From: a bacterium
GTDB lineage: Bacteria; Patescibacteriota; Patescibacteriia; Patescibacteriales; JAKAJF01
Length of the DNA: 64,000 nucleotides
Reading direction: 5' to 3'
Assembly (NCBI GenBank): GCA_021788015.1
Contig: JAJYLD010000001.1
Location: 273,581-337,580, forward strand
The notes below the pieces were generated by a model, which had not been told where the DNA came from, made no database searches, and worked only from the letters and a program-made list of their open reading frames with translations. Below are positions 49,916 to 52,814 of the stretch, piece after piece (the stretch's first letter is position 1; each line of letters begins with the position of its first letter). The position numbers and the translations under genes are program-made.

Positions 49916-50527
49916 TTACGCAAATCTTCTTATTACACCTTTAACCACACCTTGAATCAATGGATCGGTCGCGTAAATCGGAGACATGGCCGAGTTTGCG
50001 GGCTGAAGGCGGATTCTTTTACTTTCGCGATAAAACTTTTTTAATGTCGCGTAGGCATTGTCGAGTAAAGCCACGACGATATCGCCGTTTTGCGGAGAGG
50101 GATTGCGCTCGACAATGACATAATCCCCGCTTAAAATTCCTTCCTCGATCATGGATTCGCCTTTCACTTTTAAAACATAGCTGTTTGCCGGATCGGTTAC
50201 GAAATCGGCGGGAACGGCTATCGTTTCATTGTCTTCGACCGCCTCGATAGGCTTCCCGGCGGTGATCAGACCGGCCATGGGCAGTTCGATCGCTCGCGCC
50301 CAATTTACAGCGGCGGTAACGATTTCAATCGAGCGCGCTTCGTTATGCGCCAATTTTAAAAATCCTTTCCGCTGCAGATTTCGCACATGGTCATGAATCG
50401 TGGCCGGACTGGAAAGCCTAAAATGCTCTCCGATTTCGCGATAGCTCGGGGCGTAACCGTGCCTTTTCGAGAACTCAGTTACGAAGTCCAAAATCTGTCT
50501 TTGGCGTTTTGTTAAATTGTCCCCCAT
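49916..50527 (-). CDS. lexA: LexA repressor
   Basis: wHTH LTKRQRQILDFV...YAPSYREIGE, Ala-Gly cleavage region LITAGKP, Ser in KGESM and Lys in TLKKF. Met-27 of the track ORF is taken as the start. Confidence 0.85.
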   Translation of the reverse strand: MGDNLTKRQRQILDFVTEFSKRHGYAPSYREIGEHFRLSSPATIHDHVRNLQRKGFLKLAHNEARSIEIVTAAVNWARAIELPMAGLITAGKPIEAVEDNETIAVPADFVTDPANSYVLKVKGESMIEEGILSGDYVIVERNPSPQNGDIVVALLDNAYATLKKFYRESKRIRLQPANSAMSPIYATDPLIQGVVKGVIRRFA

Positions 50528-50593
50528 ACATTTTGTACCCTCTTTATTAAAGAGGGTAGGGTGATTTTCCTTCCGCTCTTTAAGATGAGTTTT

Positions 50594-50604
50594 AGTTATC
50601 CACA
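50594..50604. promoter_or_regulatory. AGTTATCCACA 11-mer (contains perfect DnaA-box 9-mer), copy 1
   Basis: Identical to the 11-mer at 52196-52206; both lie upstream of minus-strand operons. Confidence 0.4.
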
Positions 50605-50620
50605 CTTATATAATTAGTAT

Positions 50621-50640
50621 AACCGAACAAAAAACGAAAG
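50621..50640. promoter_or_regulatory. candidate LexA operator, copy 1
   Basis: The plus strand reads AACCGAACAAAAAACGAAAG (GAAC-N7-GAAA). It is 17/20 identical to 52103-52122. Confidence 0.5.
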
Positions 50641-50649
50641 TCAAATTAA

Positions 50650-50678
50650 TTGACTTTCCTTTTTTAATTTCCTAAAAT
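50650..50678 (+). promoter_or_regulatory. promoter divergent from lexA
   Basis: TTGACT (50650-50655), 17 nt, TAAAAT (50673-50678). Confidence 0.6.
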
Positions 50679-50703
50679 TAAGAAAAAAGGAGGTGGTGTT
50701 TTT

Positions 50704-51047
50704 TTGAAAAAAATCGATTTTCTCGGTAAGATTTTTCCATTCTTTTAAGGACAAAAGGAAATTGCACGCTGGGGGATCTTAGGGGCGGTATCCAGTCTGC
50801 GGGGCACAATAAGAGCTTTATCCTTCTTAAGGACAAGGGCAAAGGAACTTTTTTAATTTATGTATTTTGGCTCGACAAGAGCAAGAACAGAATACAACGA
50901 AAGAAACTTAAGGAATTTAAATCCGAAAGAGTGATGATTTCTTCGCCATGGAAAACAAAAGGTTACTTGGGATTAAAGGCAACTCTGGTTTATCCTGAAG
51001 GGCCGTATGATATTTTTCTTAAGTGGCCGAAATCGATTTTGAAATAA
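50704..51047 (+). pseudogene. frameshifted ~114-codon gene of unknown function divergent from lexA
   Basis: TTG start behind AAGGAGGTGG. Frame A stops at 50746-48 after MKKIDFLGKIFPFF. The -1 frame continues LRTKGNCTLGDLRGG...FLKWPKSILK* to 51047. The shift lies in a T4 run (50743-50746). Confidence 0.4.
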
Positions 51048-51118
51048 GCTCTTCGCGAGCCTTTTTATTTTTTAAAAAAGAGAGCGATTTTATTCGCTCT
51101 TTAAGTTTTGCTTTGCGT

Positions 51119-51478
51119 TTATTTTTTTTCGGGAATGGCGGAGCCGGTCTTTATTACCACCCCCATATCCTGGTCGACGGATATGTAGGCGTTAGGATCG
51201 TTCACTTTAATCCCGATTTCTTTGAAAGTGATCTCCACCCCAGCCTTGTTGCCGCCGTCGCAGCAGGTTTTTGTCTCTTTAACTGCCTGCTGGGCAATCC
51301 GGCGGATTTTCACATCGCCGGCGTGGCCGCCGAGGATATTGATTTTGTCCAGGTCGGCGTTATAGATAACCCACCCTTTCGGGACCTTTCCTTCGTAAGC
51401 CCTACAAATTATTGTCTCTCCCGCCAGTAACTTCTCTGCGTCCGAACTCTTGATAATAATCTTCAGCTTGTCCGACAT
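51119..51478 (-). CDS. hypothetical protein C of three-gene operon (119 aa)
   Basis: GAAGGAGG lies 5 nt upstream of ATG 51478 (MSDKLKIIIKSS...). It follows gene B after an 11-nt gap. Confidence 0.55.
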   Translation of the reverse strand: MSDKLKIIIKSSDAEKLLAGETIICRAYEGKVPKGWVIYNADLDKINILGGHAGDVKIRRIAQQAVKETKTCCDGGNKAGVEITFKEIGIKVNDPNAYISVDQDMGVVIKTGSAIPEKK

Positions 51479-51489
51479 TTGTTCCTCCT

Positions 51490-51819
51490 TCAAAATAGAT
51501 TTTGCTGATTAGTATGATTTTTTTCTCTTTCCCTTTTCCTTCTGGCAATCGCCTTTTTTGTTTTTCCCGGATGCATGAGTTGATTACAATGGACAGAACC
51601 GGGCAGGATTCTAATCTCGCATCTTTCGCCGTAGCCCTTTCCGAAATGCTGGTCAAGTCTCGCTCTCATAAGTTCTTTAGCCTTGGCTATCTTCGCCGCC
51701 TCGATCACAGGCGTTGCTCCACTTACTGAGATCTGTATGAATCTAAATTTATCTCCCGTGAGGATTTGGCCAACCGGATTTTTTACTTCATATTTTGCGT
51801 TTAATTTATATTCTTCCAA
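51490..51819 (-). CDS. hypothetical protein B (109 aa, TTG start, basic C-terminal tail)
   Basis: AGGGGGA lies upstream of the TTG. The stop of gene A overlaps this SD. The tail is KTKKAIARRKREREK. Confidence 0.5.
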   Translation of the reverse strand: MEEYKLNAKYEVKNPVGQILTGDKFRFIQISVSGATPVIEAAKIAKAKELMRARLDQHFGKGYGERCEIRILPGSVHCNQLMHPGKTKKAIARRKREREKNHTNQQNLF

Positions 51820-51828
51820 AACATCCCC

Positions 51829-52080
51829 CTATTTTATCAATTTTAATCCGTGCCGCCGCTTTTCCAGTTCTTCAAGAACCCAATCCCTAAAAGGGGGATC
51901 GACGCATTTGCTTTCCTCTACCAGTTCGCGATAAGTGTATTTACTCTTGGCGCCATCCCAAAGTTCCCGCATTATTTTTATAAGAGCCCCACCTATTTGT
52001 TGCATGCGTTTTTCCTTTCTTGTGAAATGATCAATTTGATATTTAAAACTACCATAATTTTTTTTCTTAGTCAATGCCAT
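51829..52080 (-). CDS. hypothetical protein A (83 aa, possible HTH)
   Basis: The MALTKKKNYGSFKYQ... start is preferred because the 20-nt operator-like motif lies 23 nt upstream. YTYRELVEES resembles an HTH turn. Confidence 0.5.
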   Translation of the reverse strand: MALTKKKNYGSFKYQIDHFTRKEKRMQQIGGALIKIMRELWDGAKSKYTYRELVEESKCVDPPFRDWVLEELEKRRHGLKLIK

Positions 52081-52102
52081 AAAATAATTTTCCAAAATTG
52101 TA

Positions 52103-52122
52103 AACCGAACAAATTTCGAAAG
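52103..52122. promoter_or_regulatory. candidate LexA operator, copy 2
   Basis: The plus strand reads AACCGAACAAATTTCGAAAG. Confidence 0.5.
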
Positions 52123-52174
52123 ACTAAAATTAGAAAGAAATTCGCGCATTTTTCTTTACCGCCTTGCAAAAATT

Positions 52175-52183
52175 TGGTATAAT
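52175..52183 (+). promoter_or_regulatory. extended -10 promoter (TGGTATAAT)
   Basis: TGnTATAAT match. It drives the micro-ORF unit that ends at the 52315-52350 terminator. Confidence 0.5.
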
Positions 52184-52195
52184 TAAATTAGATAA

Positions 52196-52206
52196 AGTTA
52201 TCCACA
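52196..52206. promoter_or_regulatory. AGTTATCCACA 11-mer, copy 2
   Basis: Identical to 50594-50604. Confidence 0.4.
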
Positions 52207-52249
52207 GGTAAAAATTCCTCACCTTTAAGTAGGAATATAATGCAAAAAG

Positions 52250-52294
52250 ATGGCTGCAAAAAAAGCAAAAAAAGCAAAGAAAAAGAAGAAATAG
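52250..52294 (+). CDS. possible 14-aa polylysine micro-ORF (MAAKKAKKAKKKKK); alternative 21-codon frame from 52240
   Basis: It lies between the extended -10 promoter and a strong terminator. Coding status is unproven. Confidence 0.2.
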   Translation: MAAKKAKKAKKKKK

Positions 52295-52314
52295 TCTTTT
52301 TCTGATAAACTCAC

Positions 52315-52350
52315 AAAAAGAATAGTTGTTAATGCTATTCTTTTTGTTTT
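52315..52350 (+). terminator. rho-independent terminator
   Basis: AAAAAGAATAG ttgttaatg CTATTCTTTTT gtttt. Confidence 0.8.
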
Positions 52351-52529
52351 GACATAAAAATTATTTTTTAGTAAGATTACATTGTTGAAGTGCTGCCGCG
52401 AGGTAGTTTTTTATTTCAGACAAGATTATTTATTAGGAAAAATTTTCTAGTAAAATCGAAGCGCGTAATAGTGAACTATTTTTGAAATCGGGCATCGGCA
52501 GAGAAGAAAAACAAAATATTTTGATTCAT

Positions 52530-52600
52530 TCGGGGATCGTCTAATGGTAGGACAGCGGGTTTTGGTCCCGTCAATTGGGGTTCGAATCCCTATCCCCGAG
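52530..52600 (+). tRNA. tRNA-Gln (anticodon TTG)
   Basis: Acceptor TCGGGGA/TCCCCGA, anticodon arm GCGGG-TTTTGGT-CCCGT, T arm TGGGG-TTCGAAT-CCCTA. Confidence 0.9.
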
Positions 52601-52814
52601 CAAACAACGGAATCGTTCGAGAGACCGAACTGCGTCAAAAACGCCGCAAAAAAACACTTTTTTATAAAGTGTTTTTTTGTCTTAAAAACAAAGTTTTTAA
52701 TCATTAATATACCCTGCCCCAGGGAACGCAGGGTGTATTGATGATTAAAATTCCTATATTTTAAAACGGAAAATTATGTTATACTTAAATATATAACTTA
52801 AAACTTAAAAAATT

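Follow-up and report, generated by a model that had tools for sequence, protein, structure and literature searches.

A species-specific three-gene operon under predicted LexA control upstream of lexA in a Patescibacteria genome

Small, poorly conserved genes that lie beside lexA, carry a LexA operator, and encode damage-induced cell-division brakes are represented by yneA-yneB-ynzC (Bacillus subtilis), sosA, chiZ, and divS; YneA, SosA, and ChiZ are membrane proteins. Here, we describe a three-gene operon (genes A, B, and C, together referred to as the trio) located upstream of lexA in a 64,000-nucleotide (nt) stretch of a Patescibacteria genome (GTDB lineage JAKAJF01; GenBank assembly GCA_021788015.1, contig JAJYLD010000001.1, positions 273,581 to 337,580). 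The whole stretch is called the window, and positions are numbered from its first letter. The trio resembles yneA-yneB-ynzC in being a three-gene operon beside lexA under a (here predicted) LexA operator. However, it shows no sequence similarity to the yneA-type genes, whose operons are divergent from lexA, while the trio lies upstream of lexA on the same strand. In contrast to YneA, SosA, and ChiZ, proteins A, B, and C contain no hydrophobic segment, and no membership test places the trio in the yneA, sosA, chiZ, or divS families. On balance, we favor with moderate confidence the interpretation that the trio is a species-specific orphan operon in the LexA (SOS) regulon of an uncultured, Falkowbacteria-like member of the Patescibacteria, and that DNA damage probably induces it.

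The closest described regulon is that of Patescibacteria itself. The SOS study by Sanchez-Osuna, Barbe, and Erill (2017, Environ Microbiol 19:3465), taken here as represented in papers that cite it, is listed among the LexA direct-repeat cases in PMC7739468 and also appears in the references of PMC8565304. The system of the window is similar in having a repressor with LexA_DNA_bind and S24 domains and a direct-repeat operator between the -35 and -10 elements, which we re-derived from ~90 lexA promoters. It differs in that the genes of the trio are orphans and not the usual repair or translesion genes.

Structure and coding potential of the trio

The operon and its surroundings comprise the following features.

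52080-51829, minus strand: gene A, 83 amino acids (aa), ATG start, TAG stop, without a Shine-Dalgarno (SD) sequence
51824-51829, minus strand: weak SD-like G-tract of gene B (GGGGGA), the first base of which is the last base of the TAG stop of gene A
51819-51490, minus strand: gene B, 109 aa, TTG start, TGA stop, same frame as gene A
51484-51490, minus strand: SD sequence of gene C (AAGGAGG), overlapping the TGA stop of gene B, with its end 5 nt ahead of the ATG of gene C
51478-51119, minus strand: gene C, 119 aa, ATG start, TAA stop
51071-51100, minus strand: intrinsic terminator of the operon, with a 7-bp stem, a 6-nt loop, and a T-run, 19 nt past gene C
52530-52601, plus strand: tRNA-Gln, upstream of the trio

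An original prediction, made from the letters of the window without database searches, had proposed a translationally coupled trio of these sizes, with a TTG start and a basic tail in gene B; the three minus-strand open reading frames (ORFs) and both junctions were recovered as it described them. Gene A is separated from gene B by 9 nt (AAA-TAG-GGGGATGTT-TTG), and gene B from gene C by 11 nt (TTT-TGA-AGGAGGAACAA-ATG), a spacing that suggests translational coupling. The proposal that the SD sites differ from those of the core genes holds for gene C, given that an SD sequence is missing from most of the 23 genes called near the locus, but not for gene B (weak G-tract) or gene A (none); gene C alone in the trio has a strong SD sequence. 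The terminator reads AGAGCGA-ATAAAA-TCGCTCT followed by CTTTTTT (stem-loop at 51100-51081), and the same region also forms a terminator on the plus strand (51079-51102). A 590-nt spacer separates gene C from the downstream lexA gene on the same strand. As predicted, the trio lies in a 2.7-kb stretch extending from the lexA stop to the end of the tRNA-Gln gene (49916-52601), in which an Rfam scan returned no match other than the tRNA.

Forty long ORFs of the window served to train a three-periodic second-order Markov model, with which coding potential was scored. Genes A, B, and C scored 4.3, 3.1, and 5.2 bits per 100 nt, respectively, in their annotated frames, while the other five frames of each were all negative and the overlapping antisense ORFs (83 to 135 aa) were negative in their own frames. 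Known small neighbors outside the training set scored 2.3 to 5.8 bits per 100 nt. The G+C content at the first and second codon positions is gene-typical throughout the trio. At the third position (GC3), genes A and B are typical as well, and gene C reaches 0.64 to 0.65, compared with a genome mean of 0.44 +/- 0.06. Simple codon log-odds gave a weak signal overall and were indecisive for gene A. Because the Markov signal is confined to the annotated frames and is similar to that of known small genes, and because the trio combines gaps of 9 and 11 nt with a strong SD sequence on gene C and a terminator past gene C, we conclude from these sequence features that A, B, and C are real coding genes and that they would form one transcription unit.

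The starts and stops were considered individually. A public gene call extends gene A to 106 aa (start at 52149); this version was rejected because the predicted operator and -10 element described below would then fall inside the gene. The short leader (~10 nt) of the 83-aa version also matches the LexA-box genes of relatives, which likewise favors that start. Genes A and B share one frame and are divided by TAG and three codons. Gene B has no ATG or GTG start; TTG, the first start-like codon after the stop, is its sole possible start. Under a longest-ORF rule, TTG starts 10 of the 54 long ORFs of the window, and TAG ends 7 of them. Recoding of TAG was rejected: TAA, TAG, and TGA each terminate long ORFs in the window, and the genetic code is therefore standard.

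The LexA operator of the clade and the promoter of gene A

Five minus-strand features bear on the regulation of the trio.

49916-50527, minus strand: lexA, 203 aa, with the Pfam domains LexA_DNA_bind and Peptidase_S24; presumed repressor of the trio
50616-50644, minus strand: lexA promoter TTGACT-N17-TATACT, with the LexA operator TTCGTTTTTTGTTCG (50624-50638) within its spacer
52121-52126, minus strand: weak -35-like TAGTCT, with three of six matches to TTGACA and an 18-nt spacer; below the promoter-scan threshold
52106-52120, minus strand: predicted LexA operator of the trio (TTCG-AAATTT-GTTCG; direct repeat, 11-nt period); extended match at 52103-52123
52097-52102, minus strand: -10-like TACAAT, 3 nt past the operator, with 16 nt between it and the ATG of gene A

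The genome encodes a cognate LexA with an S24 self-cleavage domain, 60 to 82% identical to LexA of Falkowbacteria and other Patescibacteria (80 to 82% for the closest relative in GTDB genomes and JGI metagenomes). We compared the lexA neighborhoods of 80 species-level genomes and 80 metagenome contigs whose LexA falls in this range of identity (1.79 Mb in total). Among these 160 loci, the arrangement TTGAC(T/G)-TTCG-N6-GTTCG-(1-3 nt)-TATAAT precedes 88 lexA genes, i.e., the -35/-10 spacer of the lexA promoter is occupied by a direct repeat whose period is 11 nt. Judged from this comparison, TTCG-N6-GTTCG is the LexA operator of the clade and the expected site of self-regulation. In more distant relatives, the box is GTTCG-N6-GTTCG, while the window and its closest relatives have TTTCG as the first half-site and a T-tract as the spacer. 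The alphaproteobacterial LexA box (GTTC-N7-GTTC; PMC8565304) is likewise a GTTC direct repeat with an 11-nt period, and differs from the box of the window and its closest relatives in the same half-site and spacer; the resemblance may reflect convergence or shared ancestry.

The operator-like motif behind which the original prediction had placed the trio corresponds to this clade operator. A 20-nt motif, AACCGAACAAANNNCGAAAG, has two perfect copies in the 64 kb, one upstream of lexA (50621-50640) and the other upstream of gene A (52103-52122). Expressed as a motif of 17 specified bases, it has two exact copies; even with as many as three mismatches allowed, only 0.76 matches would be expected. 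On the minus strand, the upstream region of gene A reads TAGTCT-TTCGAAATTTGTTCG-GTT-TACAAT-N16-ATG. Nine core bases and five flanking bases (C-T...G-T-T) of the predicted operator agree with the lexA promoters of the relatives, and the box takes up the spacer (18 nt) that separates TAGTCT from TACAAT, overlapping a promoter that is weak. The distance from the box to the -10 element is like that at lexA (GTTCG-GT-TATACT) and at the SOS promoters of the relatives (1 to 3 nt). The core TTCG-N6-GTTCG occurs five times in the window; the copies at lexA and gene A are the only intergenic ones, and the other three lie inside long ORFs. With a position weight matrix (PWM) built from 39 distinct lexA-promoter sites, the highest-ranking sites of the window were those of lexA (32.8) and gene A (16.7), followed by a site scoring 11.3; in 30 mononucleotide shuffles of the window, the mean maximum was 10.3. 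Since the clade operator core and its flanks sit at the -10 element upstream of gene A, the trio is most likely SOS-regulated. Among the options raised by the original prediction, only the damage-inducible one is thereby strengthened, on the basis of an operator match in promoter register. The layout further implies that the leader of gene A would be ~10 nt long and lack an SD sequence.

These elements suggest how the trio could be controlled. In an undamaged cell, LexA bound to TTCG-N6-GTTCG within the weak promoter TAGTCT-N18-TACAAT would block RNA polymerase. DNA damage would lead to RecA-stimulated self-cleavage of LexA and free the promoter, giving a transcript of ~1 kb that would start ~10 nt before the ATG of gene A and end at the hairpin past gene C. 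Gene A would be translated from a near-leaderless 5' end, apparently like most genes of this genome. Translation of gene B (TTG, 9 nt past the stop of gene A) and gene C (AAGGAGG over the stop of gene B) would proceed by re-initiation or SD-directed initiation. As a separate observation, an SD sequence is absent from most called genes at window positions 41119-61478, and a -10-like hexamer lies within ~20 nt of the ATG in several, which suggests that leaderless or short-leader translation may be widespread in this genome.

Several observations weigh against LexA control of the trio or limit what it would explain. The PWM score of the gene A site is far below that of lexA, and 1 of the 30 shuffles reached 18.1, the largest control value. 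The spacer of the gene A box starts with AAA, compared with (G/T)TT in the 39 unique lexA sites. The -35 element is poor, and for this reason the promoter is absent from the list produced by a consensus scan. LexA-type promoter modules with decayed boxes occur in the same intergenic stretch (50650-50678 and 52155-52183), so the box of gene A could likewise be a relic. Conservation of the gene A site has no orthologues as a comparison. The shared frame of genes A and B across a single TAG would also fit one broken gene. Finally, no specific biochemical function is supported by the structure models and Foldseek searches reported below.

Proteins of the trio and alternative explanations

The three proteins are basic, with isoelectric points of 9.7 (A), 10.0 (B), and 8.7 (C); A and B are soluble, none of the three has a membrane segment, and B ends in a very basic C-terminal tail, KTKKAIARRKREREK. 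In agreement with the original prediction, which recognized no family, searches of Pfam, NCBIfam, and PADLOC returned no match at E values up to 1 for any of the three, and a PDB sequence search returned only a chance-level match for A (E = 0.9). The label "helix-turn-helix-like" given earlier to A found no counterpart among the helix-turn-helix profiles of Pfam and NCBIfam at the same cutoff. PHROGs yielded only sub-threshold matches for all three (E = 0.035 to 0.17), to families of unknown function. Each protein retrieved only itself in a word-indexed search of 5.8 billion clusters and forms a one-member cluster among ~15 billion public sequences; the other public contigs that carry the trio are 100% identical to the window. 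Searches with tblastn of 50,697 phage records and of the 160 lexA loci of relatives, as well as IMG/VR scans, were empty for A, B, and C, and no paralogues of the trio were found within the window. When 1.84 billion representatives were scanned in full with HMMER, C matched only itself and four giant repeat proteins (one RTX protein with DUF5979 Ig-like repeats, one FecR/Big_9 protein, and two ankyrin proteins; E = 5e-10 to 1.5e-4). We rejected these four as homologues because the score sums ~30 bits per repeat over repeat types that are mutually unrelated, because the alignment straddles a repeat boundary, and because ankyrin (alpha) contradicts the beta prediction for C. Conservation as a trio, on which the proposal of a functional module had depended, was thus not found: none of the genes has a detectable homologue anywhere searched, and the trio therefore cannot be called a recurrent module.

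Structure prediction, which the original prediction had suggested for all three proteins, was run for B and C, and the models were too poor for fold assignment. Single-sequence AlphaFold2 gave unreliable models, an all-beta one for C (pLDDT of 42) and, for B (pLDDT of 55), one that comprises two beta-hairpin-plus-helix units and ends in a basic helix. Foldseek searches of PDB and BFVD gave no hit at E < 0.03; the TMq values (at most 0.45, mostly ~0.3) were disregarded. Because A and B are small, soluble, and strongly basic, we guess that nucleic-acid binding is their most likely activity; A may have a regulatory role, and C could be a beta-rich soluble partner. By analogy with lineage-specific SOS genes adjacent to lexA elsewhere, the trio might encode a brake on growth or the cell cycle that is induced by damage, or a protective factor associated with the nucleoid, a proposal in which we have low confidence.

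Among explanations other than SOS control, the leading one, although unlikely, is that promoter modules were duplicated and left the LexA-like box as a non-functional relic, with the trio being an ordinary orphan operon that is constitutive or otherwise regulated. Four lexA-type promoter modules occur in a 2-kb stretch, two of them (50650-50678 and 52155-52183, plus strand) with clearly degenerate boxes, and the atypical spacer and weak -35 element of gene A would fit the same history. The relic modules have lost the core, however, while the box of gene A retains its 9 core and 5 flanking bases, keeps its register to the -10 element and the ATG, and is the sole intergenic core match in the window besides that of lexA. 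It is improbable that genes A and B are the halves of one ~196-aa gene broken by TAG (decaying or read through) and followed by gene C. The shared frame, the mere TAG and three codons between them, the TTG start of gene B preceded by nothing stronger than a G-tract, and a nearby orphan ORF that looks frameshifted (50705-51047, plus strand), hence possible gene decay in this stretch, speak for such a break. A shared frame nevertheless has a one-in-three chance, TTG starts and TAG stops are both regularly used by the long ORFs of the window, and both parts retain a coding signal; an artificial A-Q-B fusion, tried as a query, had no match in Pfam or PDB. Chance open frames in a non-coding spacer are highly improbable: although the ORFs have no homologues, are overlapped by several antisense ORFs of similar length, and gave an indecisive codon log-odds result for gene A, the Markov score is positive in the annotated frames only and negative for the antisense ORFs, the first two codon positions have gene-typical G+C contents, gene C has a strong SD sequence at the right distance, the ORFs tile the region, and a terminator follows.

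The toxin-antitoxin-like and phage-derived origins considered in the original prediction found no support. If the trio were a toxin-antitoxin or abortive-infection-like module in three parts (A as regulator, B as antitoxin, and C as toxin), perhaps also under LexA control, it would be comparable to paaR-paaA-parE and omega-epsilon-zeta or to the SOS-linked dinJ-yafQ and yafNO, since it would share with them three small, tight genes, a first gene that possibly encodes a DNA-binding regulator, and a possible LexA box. Some SOS genes of Escherichia coli are indeed toxin-antitoxin modules, and the trio is small, closely spaced, strain-specific, and situated beside a tRNA gene. Such an arrangement of small adjacent genes with short gaps and a single terminator is, however, non-specific to these systems, and unlike them the trio has no homology to toxin or antitoxin families in Pfam, NCBIfam, or PADLOC, no PDB sequence match, and no fold evidence. 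The tail of B is strongly basic, while the tails of antitoxins such as MazE are acidic. We therefore regard this identity as quite improbable. Insertion of a phage or other mobile element between lexA and tRNA-Gln, with a remnant such as a LexA-controlled antirepressor or lysogeny-switch cassette left behind, would account for the absence of the trio from every relative examined, the deviant GC3 of gene C, the adjoining tRNA gene, and the fact that the sole weak profile matches of all three proteins are in PHROGs. Against it, neither the phage genomes nor IMG/VR contain a match, no integrase, recombinase, or phage gene was found within 10 kb on either side of the trio, and no att-like flanking direct repeats were found around it. 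In addition, the trio is on the 5' side of the tRNA gene, while integrating elements usually insert on the 3' side; genes A and B are native-like in composition, and the coding statistics of all three genes are native-like. We consider a remnant of this kind improbable.

Variable surroundings of lexA and adjacent elements

Under the favored interpretation of an SOS-regulated orphan operon, the distribution of genes around lexA in the relatives provides context. The distribution and neighborhood analysis called for by the original prediction revealed an SOS periphery near lexA that varies among relatives, although the trio itself is absent from their 160 loci. Synteny is limited to lexA and the following Zincin_1 gene, and the region upstream of lexA varies by species. 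In these relatives, the LexA box drives small genes near lexA (e.g., genes for DUF6504-like proteins, GIY-YIG and NYN nucleases, IS200 transposase, and metK), and the ATG of such accessory genes lies a few bases past the -10 element. Short leaders are therefore usual in the clade, as is an SOS periphery that varies, and from this comparison the trio is seen as this genome's version of that periphery.

Two further genes of the relatives were noted. At five loci, a LexA-box promoter with almost no leader precedes the gene for a conserved 82-aa protein (MHEKINEPVEVLVKFNQAKVEP...) that matches DUF6504 at a borderline level (E = 6e-5); this is likely a core SOS gene of Falkowbacteria and was not found in this window. 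It is like the genes of the trio in being small, near lexA, and under the same type of LexA-box promoter with almost no leader, but differs in being conserved across several species and has a sequence unrelated to those of A, B, and C. At eight loci, a gene for a 23S-rRNA-intervening-sequence (four-helix-bundle) protein lies between the LexA-box promoter and lexA, so that it would share a transcript with lexA.

A DnaA-box consensus 9-mer, TTATCCACA, accompanies the LexA operator in the lexA promoters of the relatives, with an exact copy in 74 of the 89 distinct promoters and a copy with at most one mismatch in 83, compared with a background of 0.022 per comparable window. It occurs in two fixed layouts, either as TGTGGATAA 30 to 49 nt after the start of the LexA box, just past the -10 element, or as TTATCCACA ~30 nt before the LexA box, just ahead of the -35 element. 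Both copies are present in the window (50596-50604 and 52198-52206). This pattern suggests that DnaA or another reader of the 9-mer co-regulates lexA in the clade.

Two plus-strand promoters lie in the same stretch. The first, TTTACC-N17-TATAAT with a TG extension (52155-52183), is a good promoter placed back-to-back with that of the trio. Next come TTATCCACA, a tiny Lys-rich ORF (MAAKKAKKAKKKKK; 52250-52294), which a 21-aa frame from 52240 overlaps, and a hairpin terminator (52313-52347). This promoter resembles an intact LexA-box promoter at two loci of the relatives (86% identical over 35 nt), with the box in the window being degenerate. The segment from 52155 to 52350 had no Rfam match on the plus strand and could encode a small RNA or a micro-peptide. 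The second promoter, TTGACT-TTCCTTTTTTAATTTCC-TAAAAT (50650-50678, N17), is divergent from lexA, forms a palindrome with the -35 element of lexA, and has a spacer like a decayed LexA box. It precedes AAGGAGGTG and a TTG start, which opens a 14-codon ORF (50705), and then a ~105-codon open frame in another phase, which has no start codon until GTG at 50931 and ends at 51047. The coding signal of the 50705-51047 segment is weak (1.3 bits per 100 nt), and no family was matched; the segment looks like a frameshifted orphan gene and holds the position divergent from lexA that yneA-type genes have in Firmicutes. Beyond tRNA-Gln and its terminator, a 23-nt inverted repeat (52695-52750; 91% complementary, 10-nt loop) lies upstream of a gene for a 74-aa membrane protein.

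Taken as a LexA-repressed accessory operon, the trio would belong to a known kind, while its proteins are new, species-specific, and found in one genome. A more far-reaching reading, which we regard as rather unlikely, is that A, B, and C constitute a type of SOS effector not seen before, in a probably symbiotic bacterium with a reduced genome. Such an effector might be a damage-induced nucleoid-binding or cell-cycle-arrest module that is of recent, perhaps de novo, origin and that a copy of the LexA promoter module captured. The general importance of the trio is limited, as it comes from a single genome and has no assignable biochemistry, and the pairing of the DnaA box with the LexA operator may matter more. 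If LexA control is true, however, a streamlined Patescibacteria genome of ~1 Mb would keep a species-specific orphan SOS arm beside lexA and offer three small, tractable proteins to study. This would fit with the outer SOS regulon (i.e., checkpoint proteins and accessory genes) being reinvented in each lineage. The operator and its pairing with the DnaA box would be more widely useful for reconstructing regulation in uncultured Patescibacteria.

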